A stretch of 64,000 nt of DNA from Desulfobacterales bacterium (GCA_013375375.1 JABXJX010000002.1:1584-65583); one strand, 5' to 3'; shown: positions 933-61,532, counted from the first letter of the stretch. Numbers and translations: made by a program. Notes: generated from the sequence alone by a model not told the origin.

Positions 933-4511
<3,579 letters not shown>

Positions 4512-38483: not shown

Positions 38484-38576
38484 ATAGCCCAAAGGGTAAA
38501 AGAAGTTGATAGTCTATTGAGAAAAAGCGTGTGACAAAATGTTCGGGATGATGATTTCGCAGAAAGTCATCAAATG

Positions 38577-43043: not shown

Positions 43044-43370
43044 ATGCAAGACCAGCTCTTAACCATTCAAGAAGTCAGTGACCGGCTCAAGGTCCCAAAA
43101 CACACCTTGCGGTTCTGGGAAAAGGAACTGGACGGCATTATAGTTCCTCACAGAACCAACGGCGGACAGAGGCGGTACGGCCTTAAGGCCATCGCCATAA
43201 TCGAAGAGATAAAAAGACTAAGAAAAAGAGGGATGAGTCTGGCCGAGATCAAGAGGAAACTCGGTGATAGCAATAATTCAAATTCAGACCGAATTGATCT
43301 TTTGGCAGACAAAATTACAGAGGTCGTCAAGGCAGAGGTTTATAGGTTTCTTGAAGGGGAAGCGGAATGA
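43044..43370 (+). CDS. small MerR-family HTH protein
   Basis: LLTIQEVSDRLKVPKHTLRFWEKEL...GGQRRY is the MerR N-terminal HTH signature; 108 aa. Confidence 0.75.
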   Translation: MQDQLLTIQEVSDRLKVPKHTLRFWEKELDGIIVPHRTNGGQRRYGLKAIAIIEEIKRLRKRGMSLAEIKRKLGDSNNSNSDRIDLLADKITEVVKAEVYRFLEGEAE

Positions 43371-43615
43371 ATCCCGGCTTCTATGCTTGCCTAAAATGAA
43401 ACAAAACTTAGCACAATTCAGCACCTGCTGCCCAAGCCGGTCGACTAAAGCAACTCAGGGCTTTTCCGCCGCAAGGCGGATTGTATTTCATCACTTTCAT
43501 CAGGAAAGTGATGAGAAAAAAATCCATCAAATCCTGTAAATCCTGTCTAACTTAGGAAAGAAAAAGATCAACTATTGAACTGTTATGGAATAACAAGTTG
43601 CGGGGTGTATGTGCT

Positions 43616-45214
43616 ATGAATAATATTGCAGTGATTGGATCGGGGTACTGGGGGAAAAATCTTGTGCGCAATTTTGACGAATTAGGCGCGCTTCATACGA
43701 TCTGTGATAAGAACATCGCAACCCTTCGATCCTTTCAGGAAAAATATCCTGAGAAAAAATTTCAAACGTCCTATGAATTAGTGTTGAAAAACCCCGCAAT
43801 TGACGCCGTGGTGATCGCCACGCCGGCAGAGACCCACTTTGAGCTGGCTAAAAAGGGATTATTGGCGGGCAAGCATGTGTTTGTGGAAAAGCCGCTGGCC
43901 TTGGTAGTCAGTGAAGCAGAGACCCTTTGCGAAATTGCGTTCCGCAGAAATCTCAAACTGATGGTCGGGCATATCCTGCTTTATCATCCGGCCATTGTAA
44001 AGCTCAAAGAGATCATAAGCTCCGGTGAATTAGGAAAGATCAACTACATCTATTCAAACCGCCTGAATCTTGGCAAGTTCCGTACTGAAGAGAATATCCT
44101 GTGGAGTTTTGCCCCGCATGATATCTCCGCCATCCTTTATCTATTGGAAGAGATGCCCACGCAGGTCGTGGCCCAGGGGGGCAATTATTTAAACAATGAC
44201 ATTGCCGACGTAACCATGAGCGTGCTTTCCTTTAAGAGTGGCGTCAAGGGGCATATCTTTGTCAGTTGGCTGCATCCTAACAAAGAACAAAAACTTGTGG
44301 TCGTTGGCGACAAAAAAATGGTGGTCTTTGACGACACATTGGCCGAAGGAAAATTGCAGATCCATGATAAGGGGGTTGAATGGGTGAACCGCCAGCCGGT
44401 GCCGCGAAAAAACGACGCGAAAATCGTCCCCATAGAATCCAATGAACCACTTAAGGCGGAATGCGCCCACTTCTTAGAGTGCATTGAATCCGACAGGGCA
44501 CCGAAAACAGACGGAAACAATGGAATACAGGTTCTAAAGATTTTGAACGCTTGCCAGGATTCTCTGGAGCACCACGGCACTGTTATTGACATGAATGGCG
44601 CTTGCCGTTCGGAATCGTTCTTTGCACATGAAACAGCAGTAATTGACACAGCCTGCAAGATAGGAAAAGGGAGCAAGGTCTGGCATTTCAGCCACATCAT
44701 GTCGGGCGCTGAAATAGGGGAGCGGTGCAACATCGGGCAAAACGTGGTCATCTCTCATGGTGTCAAGATCGGCAGCAACGTCAAGATCCAGAATAATGTA
44801 TCAATCTATGAAGGCGTAGTCCTTGAAGATGATGTTTTCTGCGGTCCCTCAATGGTCTTCACCAATGTCATCAATCCACGCAGTCATATCTCCAGAAAAC
44901 ATAAATTCAAACAAACCCTGGTCAAAAAGGGCGCAACCATCGGTGCCAATGCCACGATTGTATGCGGGCATACCATCGGCAGATACGCCTTTGTCGGCGC
45001 AGGTGCCGTGGTAACCAAAGATGTGCCGGATCACGCCCTTGTGCTGGGCAACCCGGCGACGATTGAGGGCTGGATGTGCGAGTGCGGGCACCAGCTTAAT
45101 TTCCAAGGCGATATGACTGCTTGTTCAGAATGCGGGAAAGAATACATAAAGACAGAAGAGGGTGTAAGGCTTTTTGAAGATCAAGGGACGTTGCATGCAG
45201 AAACTAGTGCATAA
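43616..45214 (+). CDS. Gfo/Idh/MocA-type sugar-nucleotide oxidoreductase fused to left-handed-beta-helix N-acetyltransferase and a terminal Zn ribbon (WbpB-like + WbpD-like)
   Basis: The N-terminus has [12 protein letters not shown] (Rossmann fold) plus a Gfo/Idh/MocA body. Residues ~340-480 show hexapeptide repeats ([35 protein letters not shown]...). The C-terminus has CECG...CSECG. Start at ATG 43616. Confidence 0.75.
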
Positions 45215-45287
45215 TCCAGACGTTCATTGTCTCTCTGTAATGCTTTCCAAACATGGATAAACTAAAAAGACTAAAGAGGATTTTTTG

Positions 45288-46946
45288 ATGGAAGACAAGT
45301 TAAAACAAGGCGAAACTCTTTTTGCTGAAGGTAAAGTTGAAGAGGCTGAGAAGTGCTTTTTGGGTCTTTTGGAAGAGAACCCTGAAAATGAGGAGGCATA
45401 TAACAATCTTGGCGTCATTGCCCTTCAACGGCAGAATATTGAACAAGCTTTTGCATATTTTACAAAGGCATTGGAAATAGCTCCTTTTTACAAATACGCA
45501 GTTTTAAACTATTCCGAGGTGCTTAGGGCGTTAGGCCGACTTCATGCAGCTATTCCCATTTTAGAAAAAGGCATTGAGAAATATTCTGACGATAAAGAGG
45601 TTAATCAGCTTTTACAGGATGCTTATGAAGCTCAGTATAATTCTACACCTTTAACTGATAGCCTAAACCACAAAACACATCTTAAATCAAAGGAATTAAT
45701 TAACTCCTCTCCCGAAAAGAAATTCAGCGGAACGAACGAAGATCCACTGTCAGGCAAGAAAATACTACATGCCCCGTTTGAAATTGCAGGCAATATGGCT
45801 AGAATCAGTCGATTTCTAAGAGCCCAAAACGTGGATGCGATTAGTGCGAATTATTATGATTCATGGCTGAAATACAAATGTGATATTAATCTAAATATCA
45901 ACAACCTTCCTGAAAGCGAGCGTCATAAAACGATTGACGATTTTGCCAAAGAGGCCATAGACAAATACGATATTTTTCATTTTCACTTCACCCATTCACT
46001 ATATCCAGACTTCAGGGATTTGGAAGAACTAAAACAAAAAGGCAAGAAAATTCTCTTTTCATTTTGGGGCAGTGATCAGAGAAGCCCGGAGTGGATACTT
46101 TATCACCAAGCTAAATTTCTCGGTTACAATCCTCCAAAGCCGTTCTTCAATACGTTACAGCAATATCATACCCATAAGTTAATTAACCGCTATGCAGATG
46201 TGATGTTTGGAACAACATGTATCCCGAGAGGAATATTTATTCCAGGTTATGCAGACACTTCTGAATGGAATCTTGTGGAAAAAGAGAGAATGCTCAGAAG
46301 GAGAATAATCGAAAAGGATTCTGGAAAGACTTATTTTGTTCATGCACCAACATCACATTGGAAGAAAGGGTCTCAAATTATTCTTAAGTTACTTGAGGAA
46401 TGTAAAAAAGATGGAATGCCAATTGAAATCTTGTTTGTCAGCCAGGTTCCACCAGAAAGGGCGAAGCAGATATATGCTTATGCAGATTATGGTATTGACC
46501 ATGTTGGGGTTGGCACATTCGGATTATTTGGAGTTGAAATGCTATGCTGGCAAACTCCTGTACTCGTTTATCATATAGATCTATTTGACAGAATCCGAAA
46601 CTCCCCTCCTATCATAAGAATAACAAAAGACAATTTTAAAAGCCAAATTGCCAAGTGTATTGAGATGAAAGAAAGTGGTGAGATAGTTGAGTTGGGAAAA
46701 AAGGGACAGAAATGGGCAATTGAGAATGTAGATATATCCCTTGGTTTACCGGAATATTTGAGAATATATAGAAACTTGGTTGAAGGAAAGCAGATCAAGC
46801 AATACGTGAACAGGTCTTGGTACGAACAGGAATACCGACTTCAGAGTGGGGTAAAGTCAAAGTTTTATAGATATATGATTGAAGAGAATGTGTTTGATGA
46901 GTTGCAGATGCAAGCACCAGACTACGATAGAAGGTTGTACACTTGA
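45288..46946 (+). CDS. TPR-repeat protein with C-terminal GT-B-like (glycosyltransferase-like) domain
   Basis: N-terminal TPR repeats (AEKCFLGLLEENPENEEAYNNLG, AFAYFTKALEIAP). The C-terminal ~400 aa have a GT-B-like layout (YFVHAPTSHWKKGSQ..., GTFGLFGVEMLCWQTPVLV). The second call is weak. Confidence 0.45.
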   Translation: MEDKLKQGETLFAEGKVEEAEKCFLGLLEENPENEEAYNNLGVIALQRQNIEQAFAYFTKALEIAPFYKYAVLNYSEVLRALGRLHAAIPILEKGIEKYSDDKEVNQLLQDAYEAQYNSTPLTDSLNHKTHLKSKELINSSPEKKFSGTNEDPLSGKKILHAPFEIAGNMARISRFLRAQNVDAISANYYDSWLKYKCDINLNINNLPESERHKTIDDFAKEAIDKYDIFHFHFTHSLYPDFRDLEELKQKGKKILFSFWGSDQRSPEWILYHQAKFLGYNPPKPFFNTLQQYHTHKLINRYADVMFGTTCIPRGIFIPGYADTSEWNLVEKERMLRRRIIEKDSGKTYFVHAPTSHWKKGSQIILKLLEECKKDGMPIEILFVSQVPPERAKQIYAYADYGIDHVGVGTFGLFGVEMLCWQTPVLVYHIDLFDRIRNSPPIIRITKDNFKSQIAKCIEMKESGEIVELGKKGQKWAIENVDISLGLPEYLRIYRNLVEGKQIKQYVNRSWYEQEYRLQSGVKSKFYRYMIEENVFDELQMQAPDYDRRLYT

Positions 46947-47013: not shown

Positions 47014-48207
47014 ATGCGACTTAATCAGAAATTACAAGCGGTTTGGGAGTCTGCTACAGTCGCTCTGGCGGACCGTGTTCGCGAACTAAAGGCAGAGGGT
47101 AAGCATGTCATTGCGTTGCAGACAGGAGACCCTGACTTTCCAACACCAGAGCCAATTGTTGAAGCTGCCTATCAGGCTTTAAAGGATGGGCTGACGCATT
47201 ATTCGAACAGCCGTGGTTTGCCGGAATTGAGAGAGGCTATTTCACAGAAGCTTTTTCAGGAGCATGGCGTGCATTACGACCCAGGTGCCGAAATCCTGGT
47301 CACCAGCGGTGGTGTACACGCTTACTTCTGCGCGTTGAATGCCATTCTTAGCTTGGGTGAAGAGGTGCTTGTTCCAGACCCCGCCTGGATGACACACTCC
47401 AACGTTATTACTCTTCTAGGAGGAAAAGCGAAACATGTTCCTTCGGAACCGGAGAACGATTTTTGGCCAAAAGTGGACGCCTGGGAGGAGTCAGTTTCCC
47501 CCAAGACCGTGGCTCTGGTGATCAACTCTCCCAATAATCCGACTGGGTCGGTTGCTACTGAGGATTACCTGCGCAAAGTTGTGGACTTTGCCAATCGCCA
47601 CGATCTGCACATCATCTCTGATGAGGTTTACAACGCCATCCTTTTTGATAGCCAGCGGCATGTGTGTATGGCATCTTTTCCTGAAGCTCGTGATCGTATT
47701 TTATTGGTCAACAGCTTTTCCAAAACTTACGCTATGACAGGGTGGCGCATTGGGTACTTGGCGGCTCCGGCCGCGATCGTTTCACAGGCACTCAAAGCCA
47801 GTCAACACACCATCACAAACGTTTCGCCTTTCGTGCAGAAGGCGGCTTTGTGTGCTTTAAACGATGCCGACGTTGCTGCTGCAGTGAGCAAAATGGTTGC
47901 CCGTTATCAGCAACGGCGTGACATGGCACTGAAAATCCTTAAAGAACGTTCCCGTGTGGGGATTGATGTTGTGAAATCAAAAGGAGCCTTCTATCTTTTT
48001 CTCGATATCCGCAAACTGGGAATGCCGTCCAATACCTTTGCGAAGCGACTGCTTGACGAAGCACTGATCTCTACCGTGCCTGGCTCAGTATACGGTGTGT
48101 GTGGAGAGGGATTCCTGAGAGTGACGACTGCGACATCTGAAGAAGTTATAGAAGCTGGAATTCAGGGACTATTAGATTGGGCAGATTCTCAGGAATGGGG
48201 CAATTGA
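47014..48207 (+). CDS. PLP-dependent aminotransferase, class I/II (aspartate-aminotransferase fold)
   Basis: GDPDFPTP, INSPNNPTG, and SFSKTYAMTGWRIGY (PLP-Lys motif). Confidence 0.85.
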   Translation: MRLNQKLQAVWESATVALADRVRELKAEGKHVIALQTGDPDFPTPEPIVEAAYQALKDGLTHYSNSRGLPELREAISQKLFQEHGVHYDPGAEILVTSGGVHAYFCALNAILSLGEEVLVPDPAWMTHSNVITLLGGKAKHVPSEPENDFWPKVDAWEESVSPKTVALVINSPNNPTGSVATEDYLRKVVDFANRHDLHIISDEVYNAILFDSQRHVCMASFPEARDRILLVNSFSKTYAMTGWRIGYLAAPAAIVSQALKASQHTITNVSPFVQKAALCALNDADVAAAVSKMVARYQQRRDMALKILKERSRVGIDVVKSKGAFYLFLDIRKLGMPSNTFAKRLLDEALISTVPGSVYGVCGEGFLRVTTATSEEVIEAGIQGLLDWADSQEWGN

Positions 48208-48208
48208 C

Positions 48209-49003
48209 ATGATAGTGGATGCCCACACTCACGTTACTACTGACGGACAGTGGTTTTCAACCAGCTTTGACGCCAGCGAAACATGCTTACTGCGCCAGAT
48301 GGATGAAGAGGGTGTAGAAAAAGCTGTTGTGATCGGCTTACCGGGCTATATTTCCAACGAATCCATAAATGACCTGTGCGAACGTCATAGTGGCCGATTG
48401 CTACCTGTTGCATCTTTTAACCCGGCAGATTATGCAAATTCACAAGAAGTTTCCAGGGAAATTAGAAAACAGCTCAAAGATGAGGGGTTTATTGGAGTAA
48501 AACTACATCCGCGGTTAAACCATTATGATCCATTGGATGCTCGCGTGTTTGCCTTGCTGGATGAAATAGCAAGTTGGCCCAAACCCTTACCCGTCTGGAT
48601 AGACACCCTTTTTTATTATCCAGGCGGGGTTCTCAAAAAACCACCGGTTGAAACGATCCACGAAATGGTCGGCTCTTATCCAGGGATCACATTCTTTCTG
48701 TCGCACGCCGGGGGGCCGGACATACTGAGACTCTCCCAAGCTGTTCGTAGTTGCCCAAACACTTATTTGGAGCTTTCTCTTACTTTGACGCGGTATTTGG
48801 GCAGTTCTGTTGAGATGGATATTCGCTATCTACTGAGAACGTTCGAACAACGTTTGGTCTTTGGTTCCGATTTCCCGGAGGTCAGCCTCTCTCAAGCAAG
48901 GAATGCTTTCGACATACTTGTCAAAGATGCCAAACCCGAAGCAAGACAATCAGTTTTGGGGAATAATTTCTGCAAGATAGTCTTGCAGGAGCCCAATCAA
49001 TGA
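48209..49003 (+). CDS. amidohydrolase-2 family TIM-barrel metal-dependent hydrolase/decarboxylase-like protein
   Basis: MIVDAHTHV N-terminal metal motif, ...KLHP..., SHAGGP and FGSDFP. 1-nt gap from the aminotransferase gene. Confidence 0.7.
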   Translation: MIVDAHTHVTTDGQWFSTSFDASETCLLRQMDEEGVEKAVVIGLPGYISNESINDLCERHSGRLLPVASFNPADYANSQEVSREIRKQLKDEGFIGVKLHPRLNHYDPLDARVFALLDEIASWPKPLPVWIDTLFYYPGGVLKKPPVETIHEMVGSYPGITFFLSHAGGPDILRLSQAVRSCPNTYLELSLTLTRYLGSSVEMDIRYLLRTFEQRLVFGSDFPEVSLSQARNAFDILVKDAKPEARQSVLGNNFCKIVLQEPNQ

Positions 49004-51111
49004 ATCGTCATAACCTTGAAATCCTTGAATGCACCTTACGCGACGGCAGCTATACTATTGACTTCCAATTTACCCCTCGCGACACATACGTCATCGCCGC
49101 CGCCCTTGAGAATGCCGGCTTTAATCTTATCGAAGTGGGACATGGATTAGGCTTAAACGCATCAAGTTCAGGCAAAGGACAGGCAGCAGCAACGGACGAA
49201 GAATACATGAAGGCCGCTGCAAGCACACTCAAACGGGCTCAGTGGGGAATGTTCTTCATCCCAGGCATAGGTCAACATGAAGATCTGAAATTAGCCGCTG
49301 ATTACGGGATGGATTTCGTCCGAATTGGCACTAATGTTACAGAGGTCGAACAATCCAAAGAATATATTGAGCATGCCAAGAAGTTGGGCATGTTCGTTTC
49401 GGCCAACTTAATGAAATCTTACGCCTTGCCGCCCAAAGAACTCTCTATACGGGCAAAGCTTTCGGAAAGGTTCGGTGTTGATCTGGTGTGTCTGGTAGAT
49501 TCTGCGGGGACTATGTTGCCCGAGGATATTCAAAACTATGTGCGAACGATGCAAGATGTTCTTAATATACCAATAGGACTTCATTGCCATGACAATCTTG
49601 CACTGGGTATAGCAAATGTCTTGGCAGCGATCGATTGTGGAGTTCAGCGAATTGATAGCACTCTACAGGGAATGGGACGAGGGGGTGGCAATCCAGCCAC
49701 TGAAGTCTTAGTCAGTGTTTTGAAGAAACAAGGAATTGACCTAAACATTGATCTCAACCGTTTAATGGACGTCAGCGAGCGACTCATAAAACCAATGTTA
49801 CAGGAAAAAGGTTTTGATTCAATCAACATCACTTCGGGCTATGCCGGATTCCATTCCGGTTATCTCAAGACGATTCTCAAATATGCCGACCGCTATAAAG
49901 TTGATCCACGTGACCTGATTGTTGAGGTATGCCGGGCAGATCAAGTTTATGCTCATGAGGAACTTGTCGAAGACATCGCTTCACGGCTGCAACAGCAAGA
50001 AGCTGGTAGAGCGGGTCTGCATATCATTTCATTACCGCATTTTGCTTTTGCTGACGGGAAAGAGATGGAGGCATCGGATGATTCTCTTGCCGGAGCGGTT
50101 GAAAGGGTTGTGACAAAGGCCAGGACTACAGCCAAGAGACGAGGCAAACAGAGCGTTCTTAATATTGTTGCAGCTCCGCAGGCCGCAGAACAAACTATCG
50201 TTTCACGATTCGTGCAGGAAGAGTTTGACTATGTCATTGGCAGTGTAGAGGTTGGCAGCCCCTTGCCACTGGAAGAAATCATCGCAGTTGCTGATGGCGT
50301 GGTGGACATCTTGCTTGTGGATGCCGAACTTAAACCGTACCTCAATGAGCCTTTGTTTACAAAGGGACGTTCTCTTGCAAAGCAAAGCCGGGTGGTGGGC
50401 TACAAAGACTACGATGTCTGGGTACGTAGCGTTGACCAAGATATCCGCATGATGTTGAAGGATATTCGAGGTCGGCAGATCACGGTATGCGGTACGGACA
50501 ATCTGTCATTGAAACTTGTCTTATCCATGCTCGAACAGGGAGCAAGGGTCACACTTACAGGAGCCACCTCCGATAAGCTTGAAGTCTTCGGTGACTCCCT
50601 GAAACGAATGGCTCTCTGTACAGGGTTTCTGGGGATTGAAGCGGATCCTGTTGAGGCGGCCCGGGCGGCCGAGGTGATGGTGTCTTTTTCACGGAGGGAA
50701 CTTCTGGTCAGCCGAGCGATGGTAGAAGTGATGGCTGCCCACGGCATTATATTTGACGGGGGAATCGGTTCTGTGCCGCCTGAGGTAATCGCATACTGCA
50801 ACGAATGCGGTATGCGGATTATCCGACCGGATATGCGTGCTGTATTGGCATGTGAGCTGGCATCATTACTTGGGACAGATCGTACGGTTAATGAATTGAT
50901 GGGGCGAGGAGAAATAGCGGGCGTCCAGGTGGTAGCAGGCGGTTTGGTGGGCAAGTACGGAGATATTGTTGTAGATTCCGTATCGAATCCCTCCCGAGTA
51001 GTAGGTGTAGCTGATGGATGTGGACGGGTTCTATACGTTCCTACAGAATTCACCGATCAGATAGAGGCGGTTGAGCGAGAGATTGTACGGCGGCAAGCTC
51101 TGATCATTTAG
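49000..51111 (+). CDS. HMGL-like (DmpG/pyruvate-carboxyltransferase type) aldolase domain fused to a ~350-aa uncharacterised C-terminal domain
   Basis: ILECTLRDGSYTIDFQF, VRIGT and GLHCHDNLALGIAN..D.TL.GMGRGGGN are HMGL-like TIM-barrel motifs. No family was recognised for the C-terminal half. Confidence 0.7.
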   Translation: MNRHNLEILECTLRDGSYTIDFQFTPRDTYVIAAALENAGFNLIEVGHGLGLNASSSGKGQAAATDEEYMKAAASTLKRAQWGMFFIPGIGQHEDLKLAADYGMDFVRIGTNVTEVEQSKEYIEHAKKLGMFVSANLMKSYALPPKELSIRAKLSERFGVDLVCLVDSAGTMLPEDIQNYVRTMQDVLNIPIGLHCHDNLALGIANVLAAIDCGVQRIDSTLQGMGRGGGNPATEVLVSVLKKQGIDLNIDLNRLMDVSERLIKPMLQEKGFDSINITSGYAGFHSGYLKTILKYADRYKVDPRDLIVEVCRADQVYAHEELVEDIASRLQQQEAGRAGLHIISLPHFAFADGKEMEASDDSLAGAVERVVTKARTTAKRRGKQSVLNIVAAPQAAEQTIVSRFVQEEFDYVIGSVEVGSPLPLEEIIAVADGVVDILLVDAELKPYLNEPLFTKGRSLAKQSRVVGYKDYDVWVRSVDQDIRMMLKDIRGRQITVCGTDNLSLKLVLSMLEQGARVTLTGATSDKLEVFGDSLKRMALCTGFLGIEADPVEAARAAEVMVSFSRRELLVSRAMVEVMAAHGIIFDGGIGSVPPEVIAYCNECGMRIIRPDMRAVLACELASLLGTDRTVNELMGRGEIAGVQVVAGGLVGKYGDIVVDSVSNPSRVVGVADGCGRVLYVPTEFTDQIEAVEREIVRRQALII

Positions 51112-51138
51112 CGGTCCGAACACAGACGGAGGTTTGAG

Positions 51139-51816
51139 ATGCCAAACGGTGTAGTTAATACAAAAATAGAGAGACCTTCCGCCGAGGTGGTGGAACGGTT
51201 TAAAGAATTACCTACTAGTATAATCTCCGATGCGATGAACAGATCGAATGCCATGCATGCAGAGATCAAATGCCTTAATTCGAATATCAAAATGGTTGGA
51301 ACAGCCGTGACAGTCAAAGGAATGGTTGGTTGCAACATAATGAGCCACAAAGCTATATATGTGGCCGAACCTGGAGATGTGATAGTGTTTGATGCGAGAG
51401 GGCATACGGATACATCGGTGTGGGGATTTCTTCAGACGAAGGCTTGTGTGCTTAGAGGAATTACAGGGATTGTGATTGACGGCAGCGTCAGAGATAGTTT
51501 GGAAATCAGGCAATCAGGGCTTCCGGTATTTTGTCGGGGAATCACGCCTGCGGGGCCACACAAAGGGTGGGGAGATAGCGTTAACGTTCCGATCCAATGT
51601 GGCGGTGTGCCTGTCAGCCCAGGCGATATCATTGTCGGTGATGATGATGGCGTAATAGTTGTCCCTGGAGGTCAAGCAACAGAGATATTAAAGAAAGCGG
51701 AGGCAGAGATGACTAAGGAGGAGGATTGGTTTAAAAAGCTAGACGAAGGACAGACCACTTTAGAAATTTTATCCCTGGATGAGAAGATCGCAGAAATGGG
51801 GGTAAAAGTAATATGA
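51139..51816 (+). CDS. RraA-like protein (class II HMG/CHA-aldolase / oxaloacetate-decarboxylase fold)
   Basis: GDVIVFDARG...WG..., IVIDGSVRD and GGVPVSPGDIIVGDDDGVIVVP are RraA-family motifs. Confidence 0.8.
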   Translation: MPNGVVNTKIERPSAEVVERFKELPTSIISDAMNRSNAMHAEIKCLNSNIKMVGTAVTVKGMVGCNIMSHKAIYVAEPGDVIVFDARGHTDTSVWGFLQTKACVLRGITGIVIDGSVRDSLEIRQSGLPVFCRGITPAGPHKGWGDSVNVPIQCGGVPVSPGDIIVGDDDGVIVVPGGQATEILKKAEAEMTKEEDWFKKLDEGQTTLEILSLDEKIAEMGVKVI

Positions 51817-53036
51817 ACAAAATCCTGATGCTTTTGGGCGCAAGCCATTTTTATGCCCCCATTATTAGAGAAATACAAAAACTGGGAACAAAGGTCGTTG
51901 TTACCGACAGGGATCCTGAGGCAGAAGGCTTTCGTTATGCGGATTGTTGTGAAGTTGTCGATATTACGGACTTTGAGAAGTCGCTGGAAGTAGCTCGTAA
52001 ATACCGTATTGACGGCATTATGGCTATAAACGATTTTGGTGTCAGGACAGCCTCTTATATAGCAAATGAACTGGAATTGGTTGGAATTGACATGGAGAGT
52101 GCTATTGCGTCATGTGACAAAGGGAAACAACGGGAGAGGTGGCGCGAGGTGGAAGTGCCACAGCCTGTTTTTGAAATTATAACAGACCTTGAATCAGCAA
52201 CTGTTGCAGCGGAGCAAGTTGGATATCCGCTGGTTATAAAACCAACTGATTCTGGGGGAGCAAGTAGAGGAATCTCAGTAGTCAAACGTATATCAGAACT
52301 TGAATGGGCAATAGATTTTGCAGGGCGTTACGCGCGGACTGGTGAGATCATTTTGGAAAACTATATTGAAGGAATTGAGGCTACCGCTGAATGTTTAATT
52401 TGGAATGGCCATGTGGAAATTCTCGCAGTCTCGGACAAAGTCAAGCCTATAGATACTAAGTACCGTGTAGCGACTAGCCTGAACTATACCTCGTTCTTCC
52501 CAGACGAGGTAATGGCCCAGATACATGATGTGGTGCCAAAGGCGATACGTGCTCTTGGAATTGAACAAGGTGCTGCCCATATCGAACTCGTGATGCGGCC
52601 GGACGGTCGAGTTTGGATGGTTGAGATGGCAGCTCGACCGGGGGGAGGTCACATTTTTCACACCATTGTACCATATGTATCTGGAGTTAACATGCCGCAG
52701 GAATTTGCGAAAATCCTTACAGGGATAGAACCGGAGATAAAACCTAAGTACCAAAAAGGAGCAGTTTACAGGTTTTTTGATCCGCCCAAGGGTAGGTTGA
52801 AAACGGTTCTAGGCCTGGAAAAGGCAGGCGAATTGTCAGGGGTGCTAGCGTTGGGTATTCAGGTGCAGCCAGGCGCCATAATTGGAGACACTATAGGACA
52901 ACACCATCGGCCGGGCTACATCGTTACAGGGGCTGAAACCAGGGATGAGGCTGTAGAAATAGCTAACGCGGTTGAGCAGACTGTAATTTTTGAAATTGAG
53001 TCAAAAGCGAATCCTGCGAGCTTTACTAACACATGA
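51813..53036 (+). CDS. ATP-grasp ligase
   Basis: DK...R, GYPLVIKPTDSGGASRGISVV, ILENYIEG and AHIELVMRPDGRVWMVEMAARPGG. 4-nt overlap with the previous gene. Confidence 0.8.
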   Translation: MNKILMLLGASHFYAPIIREIQKLGTKVVVTDRDPEAEGFRYADCCEVVDITDFEKSLEVARKYRIDGIMAINDFGVRTASYIANELELVGIDMESAIASCDKGKQRERWREVEVPQPVFEIITDLESATVAAEQVGYPLVIKPTDSGGASRGISVVKRISELEWAIDFAGRYARTGEIILENYIEGIEATAECLIWNGHVEILAVSDKVKPIDTKYRVATSLNYTSFFPDEVMAQIHDVVPKAIRALGIEQGAAHIELVMRPDGRVWMVEMAARPGGGHIFHTIVPYVSGVNMPQEFAKILTGIEPEIKPKYQKGAVYRFFDPPKGRLKTVLGLEKAGELSGVLALGIQVQPGAIIGDTIGQHHRPGYIVTGAETRDEAVEIANAVEQTVIFEIESKANPASFTNT

Positions 53037-53230
53037 GACACATGCAGAGGAATTCCATCGTCCCTACAACTAAGGATTGTGACCGAAAGCAGTTTGCAAC
53101 ACGTTGGAAAGTGGCACATAGAATCATATCTACATATCGTTGTAAAAGGAAGGAACCGAATAAGATTTAGGGTTGCCGTGGTTAGATCGTTAATGTTCAG
53201 TTCTATGGAGATTTTTTTGGAGAATCCAAA

Positions 53231-54535
53231 ATGAATTACTTAGCTGAATTAGACAAATGCAATAGGTCTGTCATAACTCAATGGGCGAACAATCATACTA
53301 AACTCGAGAAATGTCCCTGGCTTTGTTACATTAGCGTAACTAATATCTGCAATAGCAGATGTACTGTATGTGCACATGGAAAGGCAATGAGGCGTGATAA
53401 GGGCGCCCTAACATTTAGTATTTTGAAACGGATAATTGGAGAGTTGCCAAACGACGTAAGAAAGATTTACCTCATGAAACAAGGTGAGCCCTTTTTAAGT
53501 AGAAATTTGGAACGTTTTGTAAGTTATATCAGAAAGCAAAAACCACATGTCCATATTGCATTACACACGAACGGAATTTTGGCTAAAAAAGAGCGCGTGG
53601 AAAAGATTCTTCCAGAGATCAATTCGATGGGAATTTCAATTAGCGCGATATCAACGGAAACGTACAAGAAGGTTCACGGAGTTAATAAATTTGAATTGGT
53701 GAAAAGAAATTTGAAAGATATCTCTGAAATACTGTTACGAATGGAGAGCAAAAAGAAGCCACACGTTTTTATCGACTATGTTTCCCAAAAGAATAATGCA
53801 CATGAAGAAAAGCGAGACATTGTTAACTTTTTTGAATCACAATTTCCAGGACTGTCATCGGTTGACTTACACTGGGTTTATAATTTCCAAGGAGAAATAG
53901 AGGAGGGGAACATGGAAGTTTACCACAAGGTACCGTACGATAAATTTCCTTGCTGTGTTTTTCCCTGGTCTTCAATAACGTTCCTCCATGACGGGAAGGT
54001 GAGCTATTGTTTCGTCGAACCGCGAGAAAACCGATTTCTAGGAGATATTACCATCCAAACTTTTGAGGAAATCTGGAACGGAAATGAATATAGGATGTTT
54101 AGGAAAAGGATGGCCAAAGGCCGTTTTGGCGAAATGGCCGATGATGGGATTTATTGTCATAGATGTTCTTGGCTTTGGAGCATGCAGTCTCAGTCGCCCC
54201 GTAATCTGAACTATGGGTATTCTGGAGATTTGAGAAGCAGCTTCCAGTACCCGTCATTCGGTGAGCTGTTGGATTTGCCGATTGAACAAATCTTTGAGAT
54301 CGGCATAGAGTTATACTTGAAAGGAGAGATTCACCGGGCAATGGGTTATTTTGGTTTGGTTCTATCAAGCGGCTGCGACGAAGGGCTTTTCAATGCGTCT
54401 AAAGAAATGAACCAAAAATGCAAGAACGTGTTAAGGAAATATAGATATCTTGCCTTGTGGCGGGAGATGATGGAAGAAGAGGGGTTCGACTCGCATAAAA
54501 AATCCTGCAAGTATTATTCTCTTGGAGAAAATTAA
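53231..54535 (+). CDS. radical SAM enzyme with SPASM/twitch-like C-terminal Cys cluster
   Basis: The CxxxCxxC motif is NICNSRCTVCAHG. Downstream are CCVFPWSSITFLHDGKVSYC, GDITIQTFEEIWNG and YCHRCSW. Confidence 0.8.
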   Translation: MNYLAELDKCNRSVITQWANNHTKLEKCPWLCYISVTNICNSRCTVCAHGKAMRRDKGALTFSILKRIIGELPNDVRKIYLMKQGEPFLSRNLERFVSYIRKQKPHVHIALHTNGILAKKERVEKILPEINSMGISISAISTETYKKVHGVNKFELVKRNLKDISEILLRMESKKKPHVFIDYVSQKNNAHEEKRDIVNFFESQFPGLSSVDLHWVYNFQGEIEEGNMEVYHKVPYDKFPCCVFPWSSITFLHDGKVSYCFVEPRENRFLGDITIQTFEEIWNGNEYRMFRKRMAKGRFGEMADDGIYCHRCSWLWSMQSQSPRNLNYGYSGDLRSSFQYPSFGELLDLPIEQIFEIGIELYLKGEIHRAMGYFGLVLSSGCDEGLFNASKEMNQKCKNVLRKYRYLALWREMMEEEGFDSHKKSCKYYSLGEN

Positions 54536-54539
54536 TGCG

Positions 54540-55817
54540 ATGAAACATCGTGAAATACGTCCGCGGGAGTGGCTGACTGACAGCAAGTTAACAGAAGCTG
54601 GAAATGTCGCGCGGGAAGAATACAAGAGCTATTGCAAGTATCTGGCCGCGTTGGGAATGCCATCTTTTAAGGTGGCAAGAACGAAATATTTCCTTCAGCG
54701 CGCTAACTATTGGACATTACCTGGTGGTTACGCCCTCCCACCGCACACGGTAAATGTTTGTGTGAACAATATATGTAATCTGCGGTGCAGGTATTGTGAC
54801 TTCGGCCAAAAGCATGATGAAACGTTTTACCATCAATACAACGTTGTTGACCGGACAAGGAAGATTGAACTACCTTTGGAGACATGCAAGTCTGTAGTAG
54901 ATCAGGTGAAGTGGTTCAATCCTATAATCAGAGCTTCATTTCGGGAACCACTGCTTTACAAGAATATCCTGCCATTTATCGAATACACAAAAAAGAACAA
55001 CCTACCTTTCTGGCTGTTAACGAATGGATTCAATCTGGCTAGGTTTGCTGAAGATCTGGTCGGGCTTGAGGTAGATTCTGTCAGATTATCTCTGGATGGT
55101 CCAAAAGATATACATGATACGATTAGGGGCGTAAAGAATGCTTACAGCCGGATGATGGAAGGGGTAAAAATTCTTATTGATAAAAGGAGAAACACAGACT
55201 CATGTATGCAAATCGGTTTTTATTTCACTCTTAACGATCAGAATTATGACAGAATTTTAGAAACTGTGGAGGTTTTGGACAATGAGGGAGTCTTAAAAGA
55301 TGTGTTCTTCAATTTTCAATGGCTGTTGTATACGACGAAGAAAATGGCCAAAGAACATAATGAAACCCACGGAAAAGTTTGTGAAGGATATATACAGGAG
55401 TCAACGGTCCACGCAGTAGACATTTATAAGATGGATCTAAAAGTTATGAGTGAACAAGCTAAGATTGTCCAGAGAAAATATCCTGCAGAAAAAGGATACC
55501 GTATTCATTTTAGACCGTCTTTTGAGTATGAAGATCTCGTCAGGTACAGAGAGACCGAAGAATTCTCTGTGGAAGATCCACGATGCAGGGTCCTATGGTA
55601 TAACATGAACATCAATCCTGCAGGTGAGGTGAAGTCTTTCCATCATTGCCTTCTTCCGGTTGTGGGAGATATCAATGAGCAGTCGATTATGGATATATGG
55701 AACGGAGACAATTTTAGAAGACAGAGAAGGCTACTGTTAGAGCATGGAGCATATCAGGGGTGTGCCCGATGCTGGGGTGTGTACTGTCTTTTAGAGGACC
55801 AAAAGAGAAGAGATTAA
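54540..55817 (+). CDS. radical SAM enzyme with SPASM-like domain
   Basis: NNICNLRCRYCDFG; C-terminal CRVLWYNMNINPAGEVKSFHHC, GDINEQSIMDIWNG and GCARCWG. ATG 54540 follows GGAGAAA. Confidence 0.8.
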   Translation: MKHREIRPREWLTDSKLTEAGNVAREEYKSYCKYLAALGMPSFKVARTKYFLQRANYWTLPGGYALPPHTVNVCVNNICNLRCRYCDFGQKHDETFYHQYNVVDRTRKIELPLETCKSVVDQVKWFNPIIRASFREPLLYKNILPFIEYTKKNNLPFWLLTNGFNLARFAEDLVGLEVDSVRLSLDGPKDIHDTIRGVKNAYSRMMEGVKILIDKRRNTDSCMQIGFYFTLNDQNYDRILETVEVLDNEGVLKDVFFNFQWLLYTTKKMAKEHNETHGKVCEGYIQESTVHAVDIYKMDLKVMSEQAKIVQRKYPAEKGYRIHFRPSFEYEDLVRYRETEEFSVEDPRCRVLWYNMNINPAGEVKSFHHCLLPVVGDINEQSIMDIWNGDNFRRQRRLLLEHGAYQGCARCWGVYCLLEDQKRRD

Positions 55818-56133
55818 TTTCTTTGATAACAAGAAAATGTTCATCTAGAGGGCACGTATGCCACAGGATACGCCCCAATTGGTGAGAACGATAGTCATAT
55901 TGTTCACACAGGCAAAGAAATTAGTGTACTGACGGTTTAGGCGGTTTGTGTTGGAATGGTATGAGTTTGACAGCAAAAAGGTTTGTCAATCCAAAAAATA
56001 TTTTAAAAGTTATGGATAGCTTTTGGCAATAAGTGAGTTCAAGCTGCCACGTGAATTAGAAAGGAAGGGTTGAGGTCGTCGAAAATGAGTTGCAATAGTT
56101 ATAGAGCTTATCTCCAAAAGTATTGGATCAAGA

Positions 56134-57018
56134 ATGAAAGATCGCAAGTTTCCCGTCAGCGATTACAAAAGTAAGGATTCCCGTTGGAATGCCTATTACA
56201 GCAGCTTTGACATTGAGTCGTATCTGCGGATATTGGAGTATGATGAAGCCACCCTCTTCATCGACGAACACCTTGGCCCATTACCCAAAGAAAGCTTCAT
56301 CTTGGATATCGGCTGTGGTTCTGGTCGCCATCTGGTTCACCTCAGCAATATGGGCTTTACCAATCTTTTTGGTGTGGATCTAAGTCCTCATGGCATCAGG
56401 AATTTGACTATCCGCCGCCCTGAGATCAAAGCTCAGGTTGCCGATGCCACCAAATTGCCGTTTGATGACAATACATTTGAAGCAATCCTTATGGTAGGGG
56501 TCGTGTATGAGATTGCGAATGTTTCCTTACATGATCAGGTCATAACCGAGATTCGGAGAGTATTGCGTCCTGGTGGACGAGTTGTTTTCATTAATAATTC
56601 ACCATACAACTTTGGTGAGCGGATATTTACCATTACTCAGACAATTTCTGCCTTTGTCAAGAGCTCTCAACTAAAGTTCTTTGTTTGGCGTTATGAGCGC
56701 AAAGATGTTCACACATTGTTTTTGCGTCACGGGCTACGCTTAGTTGAAGAATGGCCTTGCAGTATACGACGTGGGGTGTTTCGATTTTTCTATGGGATCT
56801 TTGTGCCAAAAAACGTGAAAGAAAACCGCAAAAGACGGATAAACAACACCAATGGCCAACCGTATTCCTTGCATGAATACTACCTGGTCAACAAGGATCG
56901 AAGCCTACTTACTCCTTTGGGTAACTATGTGGCCCGGATTTCGGCGCGGGTCGACCCTTTCCTCTTCGCCAATACAATTTGCTACCTATTCAAAAAGAAA
57001 GCCCCTACGTTCAAATAA
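56134..57018 (+). CDS. class I SAM-dependent methyltransferase
   Basis: ILDIGCGSGRH (motif I), DATKLPFDDNTFEAI, and LRPGGRVVF. Confidence 0.8.
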   Translation: MKDRKFPVSDYKSKDSRWNAYYSSFDIESYLRILEYDEATLFIDEHLGPLPKESFILDIGCGSGRHLVHLSNMGFTNLFGVDLSPHGIRNLTIRRPEIKAQVADATKLPFDDNTFEAILMVGVVYEIANVSLHDQVITEIRRVLRPGGRVVFINNSPYNFGERIFTITQTISAFVKSSQLKFFVWRYERKDVHTLFLRHGLRLVEEWPCSIRRGVFRFFYGIFVPKNVKENRKRRINNTNGQPYSLHEYYLVNKDRSLLTPLGNYVARISARVDPFLFANTICYLFKKKAPTFK

Positions 57019-57058: not shown

Positions 57059-58009
57059 ATGGATATAATTAAGGATATAGTTTTTGAGTTGACTCTTAGA
57101 TGTAACCTCAGTTGTGCCATGTGTTCGCGACAGTTCCTGAAAAACAAGCCTTCAGACCTAGATTTCGCCTCACTGGAGCGTGTGCTGAGCGATTTGAAGA
57201 CTTTTTACAGCTCGAACCAGATCAATTTTAGTTTCGGGGGCTATGGGGAGCCACTTTTGTACCCGCACTTGTTTGAGGCAATTGAGACAGTTAAAACCAC
57301 ATTCCCACATAGTAATCTAACTATAACGACTAATGGTCATCTGCTGACAAGTTCTTTGATCGATAAATTGATGGTTTCACCGCTGGATTACGTACGCGTG
57401 AGCCTTAACGCTACGTGTGCTGAAGAATACCTGAGACTTATGAATAGCGACAGGTTCGACATGGTTGTATCAAATATCGAGCGTTTTCTTCGCAAGAAGC
57501 AGTCAATAAGGAGCCGGATTAAGGTAGGCATCCAGATCCTGGATACAACGATAAATAGGCAAAAATACCCTGAATACAAAAAGAGGTGGGAAGACCTTCT
57601 TACTGGCGATGATTTTATAACCTATCGCCTGATGGAAAATCGAGGCGGGACTATTGACTCCGTACGTCTTTCAAAGGGTAGCTCTCCAGGCCGCATAAAG
57701 ATGCGGTGGCCCTGCTATGCCCTTTGGTGCCACATTGCAATTGATACCCTGGGCCGCGTTTTTTCTTGCTGCGAAGCCTACACATTCAGGGATGACAGCA
57801 GTCTTTTACAGCTTGGCTTGCTTGAAGAATCGTCCATTGTTGATTTGATCAACTCGGAAAACTTAAAAAGGATGCAGGAGATGCACTTAAGAAATGATTA
57901 TTCTCTCCTGCCGGAGTGCCTAAAATGCACCAAGCCGATCAATTATCCGAACTATTGGGTTCTAAACAACGGTGTTTGGGTCGAAAAAGATGAGAATATT
58001 GCTAATTGA
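57059..58009 (+). CDS. radical SAM enzyme with SPASM-like domain
   Basis: LTLRCNLSCAMCSR; C-terminal WPCYALWCHIAIDTLGRVFSCC...ECLKC. Confidence 0.8.
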   Translation: MDIIKDIVFELTLRCNLSCAMCSRQFLKNKPSDLDFASLERVLSDLKTFYSSNQINFSFGGYGEPLLYPHLFEAIETVKTTFPHSNLTITTNGHLLTSSLIDKLMVSPLDYVRVSLNATCAEEYLRLMNSDRFDMVVSNIERFLRKKQSIRSRIKVGIQILDTTINRQKYPEYKKRWEDLLTGDDFITYRLMENRGGTIDSVRLSKGSSPGRIKMRWPCYALWCHIAIDTLGRVFSCCEAYTFRDDSSLLQLGLLEESSIVDLINSENLKRMQEMHLRNDYSLLPECLKCTKPINYPNYWVLNNGVWVEKDENIAN

Positions 58010-59456
58010 ACCTGAATCGAACTACAAGGCCCCCAATTTGGGGCTTTTGTTCCTCAGTAACGCTATTTCACAGAGTCGTCATGAGGCTTTGTTGCTGGAT
58101 TTTAATGGCAAGCCCATCGATGATCCGGCGACGAGGGTCATGCAACTCATCGATTCCCATGAAATAGCCATTATTGGGATATCGGTTTGTGATGTCAATT
58201 ACCAATGGTCCGTAGATCTTATAAGGCAATTGAAAAAGAAAAGAGCAATCACTGTCGTTGTCGGTGGACCGCAAGTCAACAGTCTAAAAGAATCTGTTCT
58301 AACGGACAACGCGGAAATTGACTACGCATTTGCTGGCGAATGTGAGGAGTCCATTGTCAACTTCCTTGACTTCATTGAGGCTGGCGGTGACGGAAGCGGG
58401 GTCCCCGGTTTACTTTACCGGAACGGAAAAACAATCAAACAGGTTAATCAAAACTTCATTTCATCGCTTGATGAACTGCCTTTCCCAGATTACAGCCATT
58501 TGGGTATTGAACATGTTTCTGGCTACATGCTGCTGACCTCACGGGGGTGTCCGTACCGCTGTACGTTTTGCTGTCGCAATACGGGGAACGTTTGGCGACC
58601 TCGATCGTTGGCCGAGTGTATAGAAGAAATACGCATAGCCAAAGAAAAGCTTGCCATCAAAAGTTTTAGAATTATCGACGCGTCTTTTAATATAAACGAA
58701 CATCGTGTTATCCAGTTTTGTCAACAGGCAAAAGAGTCAAAAAACGAACTGCCGTGGATGGTAAGCGGAATAAGGGCTGATCGTCTCACGGAGAAGTCTG
58801 TTGCTGCGCTTAAAGATGCTGGTTGTGAAATGTTGGCCGTGGGTGTGGAGAGTCTCGACCCCGTGGTATTTCGTCGGATTAACAAAGGAGAAACCATTGC
58901 TGACATTATGCGTGCAATAAACCTGGGTCACAAATATGACATTGAAGTGGCATGTTATATGATTCACGGCTTACCCGGGGATAGCTACGAAAGATCGATA
59001 AGCTACGCCCGCAAATTACAGGCATTGAGACCATCTTACGTCATGTACAATCATGCGATACCTTTTCCCGGCACCGAACTGCATAACTGGGTAACCCGGC
59101 ACGGTCATTTCAACGCTGATTTTTCATGGCTTCAGACTCGTGACGTAGAAAAAGTTGCATTCTGGACAGATGATTTTACGGAAGAAGAGCGGTTGAAATC
59201 CTTCCGCATCATCCAAACCATCACCCACGTAATAAATTTTTCTAGCGAGGACCCTAACGAGCTATCTGCTCTCGAAGCGGAGATTAAAGAGCATGACCCC
59301 GAATATCTTGTTTATCACCTTGATTTTGTCAAAGAGAACTTGAATCGAAAAGGTAATGAGAAAAACTACATTAAACGGTTTCACCAGGAAACCGATATCG
59401 GACGTCGGTCTGATTATACGGGCTGTGTTAATGTAAAGACTCACGAAATGGTCTGA
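57990..59456 (+). CDS. B12-binding-domain radical SAM enzyme
   Basis: The N-terminus (MRILLIEP...PNLGLLFLSNAI...IIGISV...VVVGGP) is a cobalamin-binding Rossmann-like domain. It is followed by SRGCPYRCTFCC. 20-nt overlap with the previous gene. Confidence 0.8.
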   Translation: MRILLIEPESNYKAPNLGLLFLSNAISQSRHEALLLDFNGKPIDDPATRVMQLIDSHEIAIIGISVCDVNYQWSVDLIRQLKKKRAITVVVGGPQVNSLKESVLTDNAEIDYAFAGECEESIVNFLDFIEAGGDGSGVPGLLYRNGKTIKQVNQNFISSLDELPFPDYSHLGIEHVSGYMLLTSRGCPYRCTFCCRNTGNVWRPRSLAECIEEIRIAKEKLAIKSFRIIDASFNINEHRVIQFCQQAKESKNELPWMVSGIRADRLTEKSVAALKDAGCEMLAVGVESLDPVVFRRINKGETIADIMRAINLGHKYDIEVACYMIHGLPGDSYERSISYARKLQALRPSYVMYNHAIPFPGTELHNWVTRHGHFNADFSWLQTRDVEKVAFWTDDFTEEERLKSFRIIQTITHVINFSSEDPNELSALEAEIKEHDPEYLVYHLDFVKENLNRKGNEKNYIKRFHQETDIGRRSDYTGCVNVKTHEMV

Positions 59457-61494: not shown

Positions 61495-61532
61495 TGTGAG
61501 GTAAGCGCCTAAAGTGATCTAAGGTGACTAAA

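Follow-up and report, generated by a model that had tools for sequence, protein, structure and literature searches.

A DmpG-type aldolase fused to a Rossmann-like domain, with an ATP-grasp ligase partner, in a glycan-tailoring cluster of a Desulfobacterales bacterium

O-antigens carry amino sugars that are N-acylated by unusual amino or hydroxy acids, with 2,4-dihydroxy-3,3,4-trimethylpyroglutamoyl on Qui4N and 3-hydroxy-2,3-dimethyl-5-oxoprolyl on Qui3N as examples (PMC10609480), and shewanellose is a C-branched sugar, 2-acetamido-2,6-dideoxy-4-C-(3'-carboxamide-2',2'-dihydroxypropyl)-D-galactose (PMC4052302). In our literature search we found no described biosynthesis for C-branched sugars such as this one or for hydroxylated oxoprolyl acyl groups, nor any characterised aldolase/ATP-grasp system in glycan clusters. 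The described aldolases that are closest to the proteins treated here are BphI, for which the roles of Tyr-290, Leu-87 and Leu-89 have been reported (PMC3962088), and the HMG/CHA aldolase, in which Arg-123 is essential and Asp-124 and Glu-199 bind the metal (PMC5065237). Here we analyse five adjacent genes in a 64,000 nt stretch of a Desulfobacterales metagenome-assembled genome (MAG), referred to as the window, from whose first letter all gene coordinates are counted. The third gene encodes a DmpG-type aldolase fused to a C-terminal domain, called X, and this fusion (DmpG-X) forms, together with a metal hydrolase and an ATP-grasp ligase, the conserved core of a module that we found in glycan clusters of other organisms.

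The five genes and the DmpG-X fusion

The five genes, and the three parts of the fusion protein, are the following:

47014..48207, + strand: class I (AspAT-like) aminotransferase dependent on pyridoxal phosphate (PLP), 397 aa, an accessory part of the module (Aminotran_1_2, E 8.8e-75)
48209..49003, + strand: Amidohydrolase-2 (Amidohydro_2) metal hydrolase, 264 aa, translationally coupled to the fusion gene (PF04909, E 6.5e-22)
49000..51111, + strand: fusion gene DmpG-X, 703 aa (aldolase part, linker and X domain)
49000..50004, + strand: aa 1-335 of the fusion protein, DmpG-type class II pyruvate aldolase barrel and communication domain (HMGL-like 1.6e-42, DmpG_comm 1.6e-12)
50005..50079, + strand: aa 336-360 of the fusion protein, disordered linker (pLDDT, the predicted local confidence score, <50 in the AlphaFold2 model)
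50080..51111, + strand: aa 361-703 of the fusion protein, X domain, Rossmann-like and two-lobed (no family match)
51139..51816, + strand: RraA-fold class II aldolase / oxaloacetate decarboxylase of the HMG/CHA type, 225 aa, a lineage-specific insertion (PF03737, E 5.9e-43)
51813..53036, + strand: ATP-grasp ligase of the L-amino-acid-ligase type, 407 aa, core partner of the fusion (ATP-grasp and LAL_C2, 3e-15)

The listing of open reading frames (ORFs) and the junction sequences reproduced exactly the layout given in the original prediction, which had been made from the DNA alone. The aminotransferase and Amidohydro_2 genes are separated by a 1-nt gap (TGA-C-ATG at 48205-48211), ATGA overlaps join the Amidohydro_2 gene to the fusion gene (49000-49003) and the RraA-type gene to the ATP-grasp gene (51813-51816), and a gap of 27 nt (51112-51138), in which GGAGG precedes the ATG at 51139, lies between the fusion and RraA-type genes. 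Among the other public stretches with relatives of these genes, which are numbered with an L, two assemblies of the same organism (L008 and L009) showed the same arrangement with 99.7-100% protein identity, so it is not an artefact of one assembly.

Such tight coupling is usual within operons and is not peculiar to the five genes. Their block is bordered by gaps of 67 nt upstream and 194 nt downstream, the terminator scan found no terminator-like site between them and their neighbours, and the downstream genes overlap as well (54522/54535, 57972/58009 and 62455/62489); because of these overlaps and of the missing terminator-like site, the boundaries of the cassette are soft. The promoter and terminator scans performed no better on the window than on shuffled sequence and did not delimit a five-gene unit.

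The aldolase part of the fusion is an HMGL-like TIM barrel (PF00682, 146 bits) followed by a DmpG communication domain (PF07836, 47 bits); it scores 316.5 with the 4-hydroxy-2-oxovalerate aldolase equivalog TIGR03217, whose cut-off is 286, and is 37% identical to DmpG (1NVM_A). Residues D15, H195, H197 and R14 align with D18, H200, H202 and R17 of DmpG and are invariant in 44 homologues; as in 1NVM and BphI, we take the Asp/His/His set to be the ligands of a divalent metal and the Arg to stabilise the enolate. At the position of DmpG His21, presumably the catalytic His of DmpG and BphI, the fusion has Tyr18, and at that of DmpG Tyr291 it has His285, both also invariant in the 44 fusion-family homologues. 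The catalytic His and Tyr have thus exchanged positions in the alignment, and the active site is re-tooled. Where BphI has the pocket residues Leu-87 and Leu-89, the fusion has Phe85 and Ile87, again without variation among the homologues. Because the His/Tyr pair is swapped and the pocket Leu residues are replaced, the electrophile may not be a small aldehyde.

A search with the fusion retrieved more than 1000 public proteins (E ≤ 1e-10), the best 120 of which were full-length fusions of ~700 aa from bacteria and archaea, the named ones being labelled '4-hydroxy-2-oxovalerate aldolase'. No match to the fusion was obtained in a plasmid search. A Leptospira pan-genome paper mentions a '4-hydroxy-2-oxovalerate aldolase' near sugar genes, the identity of which with the fusion could not be established; when the most Leptospira-like homologue served as the query, every match came from a MAG or a metagenome.

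The original prediction had described two aldolase-fold proteins in the cassette. Both aldolase domains are indeed present, but in the 703-aa protein the aldolase is confined to aa 1-335, and its C-terminal X domain, the real signature of the system, had been overlooked. X (~345 aa, aa ~361-703) had no Pfam or NCBIfam model and no sequence match in the PDB. The AlphaFold2 models were confident, with a pLDDT of 87.5 for the whole fusion protein and 89.3 for X alone. Foldseek against the PDB matched X only to generic enzymes composed of a substrate lobe and a Rossmann lobe, with template-modelling (TM) scores ≤0.42 and 10-15% identity, including dipicolinate synthase A (DpaA), OTC/carbamoyltransferases and shikimate dehydrogenase, and in a profile search X gave weak matches to the Rossmann core only. 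A Rossmann-like core in X is therefore supported by weak matches of both structure and profile.

An exhaustive search found 623 X-related clusters among 1.84 billion representatives, and a genome scan for the domain yielded 8 loci, all of them in MAGs. Besides the aldolase-fused form (~700 aa), X occurs alone (~320-360 aa), at the C-terminus of B12-binding radical S-adenosylmethionine (SAM) enzymes of ~800 aa (P0236, P0240 and P0255), joined to a radical SAM enzyme or, as the N-terminal part, to an Epimerase_2/GT28-like protein (P0229 and P0231), and these fusions to various enzymes suggest a shared substrate-handling role. The B12-binding radical SAM enzyme of the window could not be demonstrated to be an orthologue of the B12-binding X fusions, its identity of 25-26% with them being at family level. 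Stand-alone X proteins with an intact GxGxxG motif adjoin Polysacc_synt_2/Epimerase genes for dehydratases/epimerases of the short-chain dehydrogenase/reductase (SDR) superfamily in glycan clusters of Paenibacillus and Nitrososphaera:

L021:10001-11002, Paenibacillus allorhizosphaerae: stand-alone X beside SDR dehydratase/epimerase genes
L022:10001-11005, Nitrososphaera: stand-alone X beside SDR dehydratase/epimerase genes

The hosts of these two loci are cultured or well assembled. WbqC and a protein of ~250 aa are common to L022, L001 and L002.

For the remaining four proteins, and for the aldolase domain, Pfam agreed with the families first proposed (Aminotran_1_2, Amidohydro_2, HMGL-like/DmpG_comm, RraA-like and ATP-grasp/LAL_C2). 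The ATP-grasp protein scores 56.7 bits with LAL_C2 (cut-off 29.4), and its solved relatives rank 3VOT (1.7e-19) and RizA 4WD3 (2.9e-15) before PurK (4.8e-7) and PurT (3e-6); it is thus nearest to the L-amino-acid ligases and not to Ddl or to PurK/PurT, closeness to the latter being what would have spoken against the original prediction. The hydrolase scores 79 bits with PF04909 (cut-off 26.4) and its translation contains HxH at aa 6-8, KLHP, SHAGG and GSDFP, in the metal-binding pattern HxH...H...H...D. It had no PDB match to LigI, LigJ or ACMSD at E up to 0.01 and no NCBIfam match, and its best solved relative is the uncharacterised BB4693 (E 6e-5), so the resemblance to a LigI/J/K toolkit that had been drawn earlier is one of superfamilies only. 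In the aminotransferase the SFSKTY motif with the PLP lysine is present and every NCBIfam equivalog match falls below its cut-off, and it is best described as a generic AspAT-like class I enzyme, to judge from these matches.

The RraA-type protein is 30% identical over its full length to the HMG/CHA aldolase of P. putida (3NOJ, E 2.4e-31) and lies below both equivalog cut-offs (PRK09262, 170.5 vs 179; TIGR02798, 149 vs 304.5). It keeps the equivalents of Arg-123, Asp-124, Glu-199, Gly-101, Arg-40, Asn-71, His-75 and Lys-147, and departs from 3NOJ at three pocket positions (Thr-145 to Pro, Arg-195 to Glu and Asp-102 to Phe). In the active-site comparison that the original prediction had proposed, the metal ligands and Arg of the DmpG part and the Arg-123/Asp-124/Glu-199 set of the RraA-type protein are conserved, but the DmpG His and Tyr are swapped.

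Genes that accompany the fusion in other loci

The genes around the fusion were scored by tblastn in the window and in 14 further independent fusion-bearing loci (15 in all), which came from Desulfobacteraceae, other Deltaproteobacteria, Pyrinomonadaceae, Sulfotelmatobacter, Acidimicrobiia, Chloroflexota, unassigned metagenome contigs and one archaeon with AglB/STT3. The occurrence of each gene was as follows:

ATP-grasp ligase: 13/15 loci, 34-42% identity in the 12 others, beside or near the fusion
Amidohydro_2 hydrolase: 6/15 loci (the window and 5 others), mostly directly upstream of the fusion gene
CE4-like protein: 8/15 loci, never alongside Amidohydro_2
PseC-like DegT aminotransferase: 13/15 loci, 36-56% identity in the 12 others, AsnB usually adjacent
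AsnB amidotransferase: 9/15 loci, 43-47% identity in the 8 others, usually adjoining the DegT gene
Methyltransferase of ~210 aa: 9/15 loci, absent from the window
SDR dehydratase/epimerase: 10/15 loci, absent from the window
Class-I aminotransferase: 3/15 loci (the window, L014 with 66% identity, and a fragment in L005)
RraA-type gene: 1/15 loci, the window only

The five genes are not a conserved unit and represent one lineage's version of a widespread module. Whether they travel together, a check that the original prediction had proposed, was answered in the negative by the 14 other loci, none of which has the RraA-type gene, while the class-I aminotransferase occurs in 2 and Amidohydro_2 in 5 of them. 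The conserved core consists of a metal hydrolase, the DmpG-X fusion and the ATP-grasp ligase, with DegT and AsnB as usual companions.

Two loci lacked a scored ATP-grasp ligase: one ends right after the fusion gene, and the archaeal one has an unassigned gene in that place. This gene (L018:4941-6122) encodes a protein of 393 aa with no Pfam match and no tblastn similarity to the ATP-grasp ligase, and it may be a non-homologous replacement. A 189-aa fragment in L005 (6142-6711), located between AsnB and a methyltransferase and 70% identical to the window aminotransferase, is probably a decaying copy, consistent with a dispensable accessory.

The hydrolase slot was filled in 14/14 evaluable loci, mostly directly upstream of the fusion gene and otherwise elsewhere in the cluster. 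Amidohydro_2 is not a constant partner, because in 8 loci a non-homologous CE4-like hydrolase takes its place. The CE4-like proteins have ~300 aa, no Pfam assignment and the motifs TFDVD, GHEIGWHPH and R.GWG, and they match polysaccharide deacetylases weakly; from these features the family looks like a very diverged CE4 deacetylase. The possibility that they are diverged Amidohydro_2 proteins was rejected, as no BLASTP similarity was found. Members just upstream of the fusion gene are located at:

L001:9103-10008
L005:9103-10008
L020:9102-10004
L002:9193-10008
L004:7927-8901
L014:8073-8996
L007:9103-10008

The occupation of the same slot by two unrelated metal hydrolases points to a hydrolytic step.

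All the fusion neighbourhoods are glycan clusters, containing glycosyltransferases, Wzx-type flippases, ABC/Wzt exporters, NeuB with a CMP-transferase, WbqC, or AglB. No ring-cleavage dioxygenase, meta-pathway hydrolase/hydratase or DmpF-type dehydrogenase was found in the window or in the 14 other loci. The orthologues of the aldolase and the ligase are thus located in polysaccharide, nonulosonic-acid or AglB clusters at every locus examined and not in the catabolic meta-cleavage operons that would have refuted the original prediction.

The surrounding cluster and the proposed pathway

In the window the five genes lie in a one-strand glycan-tailoring cluster of ~20 kb, which extends from about 43.6 to beyond 63.7 kb. 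The other genes of this region are:

43044..43370, + strand: regulator of the MerR family, bordering the one-strand cluster on its 5' side (MerR_1, E 2.3e-19)
43598..45214, + strand: fusion of a GFO/IDH/MocA sugar dehydrogenase and a hexapeptide acyltransferase (GFO_IDH_MocA 3.8e-24, Hexapep 1.6e-20)
45285..46946, + strand: protein with N-terminal tetratricopeptide repeats (TPR; Pfam matches at aa 6-120) and a glycosyltransferase-like C-terminal part
53231..54535, + strand: radical SAM/SPASM enzyme, first of a pair (Radical_SAM, SPASM)
54522..55817, + strand: radical SAM/SPASM enzyme, second of the pair (Radical_SAM, SPASM)
56134..57018, + strand: class I methyltransferase (Pfam, NCBIfam)
57059..58009, + strand: radical SAM/SPASM enzyme (Pfam, NCBIfam)
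57972..59456, + strand: B12-binding radical SAM enzyme (Pfam, NCBIfam)
59548..61494, + strand: glutamine-dependent AsnB-type amidotransferase, often found with the module (TIGR01536, 444 bits vs cut-off 267)
61524..62489, + strand: fourth radical SAM/SPASM enzyme (Pfam; a 46% identical orthologue in L010)
62455..63708, + strand: PseC-like DegT sugar 4-aminotransferase, often found with the module (DegT_DnrJ_EryC1, E 2.2e-103)

The sole terminator-like hairpin of the region (43465-43480) follows the MerR gene. The best NCBIfam match of the GFO-hexapeptide fusion is UDP-GlcNAc 3-dehydrogenase (180 bits, below the cut-off); the protein resembles WbpB joined to WbpD and would make a keto- and then an N-acyl-amino sugar. 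The best match of the DegT protein is PseC, with 310 bits and also below the cut-off (423.5). The Glyco_trans_1_2 proteins of L021 and the TPR protein of L020 match the C-terminal part of the window's TPR protein with 26% identity (E 1e-31). Together with AsnB, these genes bear out the sugar-modification setting that had been proposed. In L010 and L015, orthologues of the radical SAM/SPASM pair come after the ligase gene, with identities of 56% and 68% in the former and 34% and 45% in the latter.

GC skew was 0.17-0.23 at positions 50001-56000 of the window, against 0.05-0.11 in the flanking part of the same-strand cluster; GC content was unremarkable. Elsewhere in the window, the large subunit of glutamate synthase is apparently split into two ORFs 11 nt apart (142-921, with the first ~260 aa and GATase_2, and 933-4511), which could be natural, a frameshift or a sequencing error. 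A single protein (4601-6328) combines a YcaO cyclodehydratase domain with a C-terminal TPR array, a UvrD/REP-type helicase (35073-38492, - strand) has an N-terminal extension of ~475 aa without a Pfam match, and FUR and FeoA domains are joined in a single protein (30166-30855, - strand) that adjoins FeoB (27758-29923, - strand).

The anabolic glycan context, the gene content and domain families, the kept and swapped catalytic residues, the co-occurrence pattern and the conserved trio are direct observations; as read from the alignments, both aldolases have retained pyruvate and metal chemistry, and the ligase is of the L-amino-acid-ligase type. We consider it probable that the module serves anabolic glycan tailoring around a pyruvate aldol product and an amide ligation, and the sequence of making an acid, aminating it and ligating it, already proposed in the original prediction, remains the best reading. 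The specific route, by which a free acid is formed and then used to N-acylate an amino sugar, is put forward more tentatively, at a little under an even chance; it is favoured for the window because the ligase, the class-I aminotransferase and the RraA-type protein have free-acid character.

By this route, the aldolase domain would hold pyruvate on its metal site and the enolate would attack a carbonyl partner, so that a 4-hydroxy-2-oxo acid is formed, the RraA-type enzyme providing, in the window lineage only, a second pyruvate-aldol or an oxaloacetate-decarboxylase step. The 2-oxo group would then be converted to an amino or hydroxy group by the class-I aminotransferase and/or the X domain. 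The ATP-grasp enzyme would activate the carboxylate as an acyl phosphate and form an amide with the amine of a nucleotide-linked amino sugar, which the GFO and DegT enzymes would supply. The hydrolase might unmask the amine by de-N-acylation, or else open a lactone, and AsnB, the methyltransferase and the radical SAM enzymes could amidate and alkylate the product. The trimethylpyroglutamoyl skeleton would formally derive from 4-hydroxy-4-methyl-2-oxoglutarate, the aldol product of two pyruvates, by C-methylation, amidation and ring closure.

Several points weigh against the N-acylation route. Most loci have no class-I aminotransferase and all 14 others have no RraA-type gene, so a route by way of a free amino acid would not be general. 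The His/Tyr swap and the replacement of the aldehyde-pocket Leu residues by Phe and Ile count here too, as does the fact that all named fusion homologues come from MAGs, with no characterised member among them; our literature search likewise found no characterised DmpG-X protein or ligase partner and no relevant paper. No 4,6-dehydratase was seen in the window. The dinucleotide loop of X is a degenerate GTDNLS in the window and GAGNIG in stand-alone homologues, and because of this degenerate motif a redox role of X is uncertain, as far as the loop can tell. Finally, the stand-alone X homologues adjoin sugar-nucleotide SDR enzymes and have neither an aldolase nor a ligase close by, and these SDR neighbours, together with the B12-binding radical SAM fusions, suggest that X handles a sugar-linked substrate.

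Such a substrate is central to the main alternative, in which C-branched sugars are made: X would bind a nucleotide keto-sugar and the fused aldolase would add pyruvate to the sugar ketone, giving a three-carbon 2-oxo-acid branch. The candidate substrates would be UDP-2-acetamido-2,6-dideoxy-4-hexulose, formed by a PseB/CapD-type dehydratase, or a 3-keto sugar made by the GFO enzyme; AsnB would amidate the branch, the aminotransferases would aminate it and the ATP-grasp enzyme would ligate or cyclise the product. Shewanellose is formally a pyruvate adduct with an amidated carboxyl, and could be mapped onto aldolase plus AsnB chemistry, in line with the joint occurrence of aldolase, AsnB and dehydratase genes in the loci. 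The stand-alone X proteins with intact GxGxxG beside Polysacc_synt_2/Epimerase SDR genes, the fusions of X to B12-binding radical SAM, radical SAM and Epimerase_2-like enzymes, in which it would act as a substrate-handling partner for different carbon-modifying catalysts, and the SDR dehydratase/epimerase and AsnB genes of 10 and 9 loci all argue for it, and the swapped His/Tyr pair and altered pocket would fit a non-aldehyde electrophile. However, the dehydratase is not visible in the window, ATP-grasp ligases of the L-amino-acid-ligase type, class-I aminotransferases and RraA-type aldolases usually use free small acids, and we know of no class II pyruvate aldolase that accepts a nucleotide-sugar ketone. 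We regard sugar branching as doubtful. Equally unlikely, in our estimate, is its broader form, in which DmpG-X would be a new bifunctional C-C bond-forming glycan enzyme, X presenting the nucleotide-linked keto-sugar and the His/Tyr-swapped aldolase adding pyruvate to it, and would constitute with AsnB, the aminotransferases and the ATP-grasp ligase a route to shewanellose-type C-branched sugars or to the hydroxylated methyl-5-oxoprolyl groups of O-antigens.

The four radical SAM/SPASM enzymes, the B12-binding radical SAM enzyme, AsnB-like cyclases and ATP-grasp ligases are types common in clusters for peptides that are made ribosomally and then modified post-translationally (RiPPs), and RiPP maturases were among the weak NCBIfam matches. 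A RiPP-like peptide or other small-molecule natural product, to which the sugar genes would be incidental, is nevertheless improbable: the intergenic gaps contain no plausible precursor-peptide ORF, AsnB scores as an asparagine synthase (444 vs 267) and not as a lasso cyclase (233 vs 525), radical SAM genes are altogether absent from most orthologous loci, and the orthologous pairs of fusion and ligase have glycosyltransferases, flippases, ABC/Wzt exporters, NeuB/CMP-transferase genes or archaeal AglB as neighbours. A catabolic lower pathway (protocatechuate 4,5-cleavage or meta-cleavage), with the aldolases working in the cleavage direction, could be read from the score of the aldolase domain above the 4-hydroxy-2-oxovalerate aldolase cut-off (316.5 vs 286), from that of the RraA-type protein near the CHA-aldolase cut-off (170.5 vs 179) and from the name of the fusion in public records. 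It is close to refuted, since the fusion gene always lies within glycan-tailoring clusters in which neither ring-cleavage dioxygenases nor meta-pathway hydrolases/hydratases nor DmpF-type genes were found, and the catalytic His and Tyr are off their canonical positions. The label '4-hydroxy-2-oxovalerate aldolase' implies aromatic catabolism, whereas the conserved neighbourhood points to surface-glycan tailoring, and correcting it alters how these loci are read in metagenomes.

Comparison with known systems

Glycan tailoring with amide-linked acids by ATP-grasp enzymes is of a known kind; the fusion family with its X domain, the swapped pair of catalytic residues and the conserved trio seem not to have been described before. 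A similar logic operates in the polysaccharide cluster for the capsule of Campylobacter jejuni, where the PLP aminotransferase Cj1437 provides a small amine or acid as building block and the ATP-grasp enzyme Cj1438 amide-links it to a sugar. That system differs in having no aldolase, X domain or hydrolase partner and in using serinol or ethanolamine phosphate as building blocks. The L-amino-acid ligases BL00235 (3VOT), RizA (4WD3) and BacD share the ATP-grasp core and LAL_C2 with the window protein; the similarity is distant (E 1e-19) and the window type always lies beside DmpG-X in glycan clusters. The nucleophile of the window ligase would probably be an amino sugar, where those enzymes use a second amino acid.

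With DmpFG and BphIJ (1NVM) the fusion has in common the HMGL-like barrel and communication domain, 37% identical, the conserved Asp/His/His and Arg residues, and the physical coupling of an aldolase to a Rossmann-type partner. In contrast, the partner in the window is fused and not a separate subunit, shows no detectable relationship to DmpF and lacks an invariant cysteine; the His/Tyr pair is swapped, the residues at Leu-87 and Leu-89 (BphI numbering) are Phe and Ile, and the context is glycan biosynthesis instead of meta-cleavage. X is a domain of ~345 aa, without a Pfam/NCBIfam model or a close solved relative, that is paired with several carbon-modifying enzymes. The RraA-type protein shares with the HMG/CHA aldolase (LigK/ProA, 3NOJ) the full-length RraA fold, 30% identity and the key residues, but lies below the equivalog cut-offs, has three changed pocket residues and occurs in one lineage only; no LigAB/C/I/J genes are present near it in the window.

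The hydrolase, aldolase-X, ligase, AsnB and DegT genes form a compact set that offers a possible route to pyruvate-derived sugar decorations. The skeletons of the hydroxylated methyl-5-oxoprolyl N-acyl groups (PMC10609480) and of shewanellose (PMC4052302) may be regarded formally as pyruvate aldol products that are subsequently amidated or aminated, and in this comparison of structures the formal chemistry would match the aldolase, AsnB, aminotransferase and ligase that make up the conserved set.

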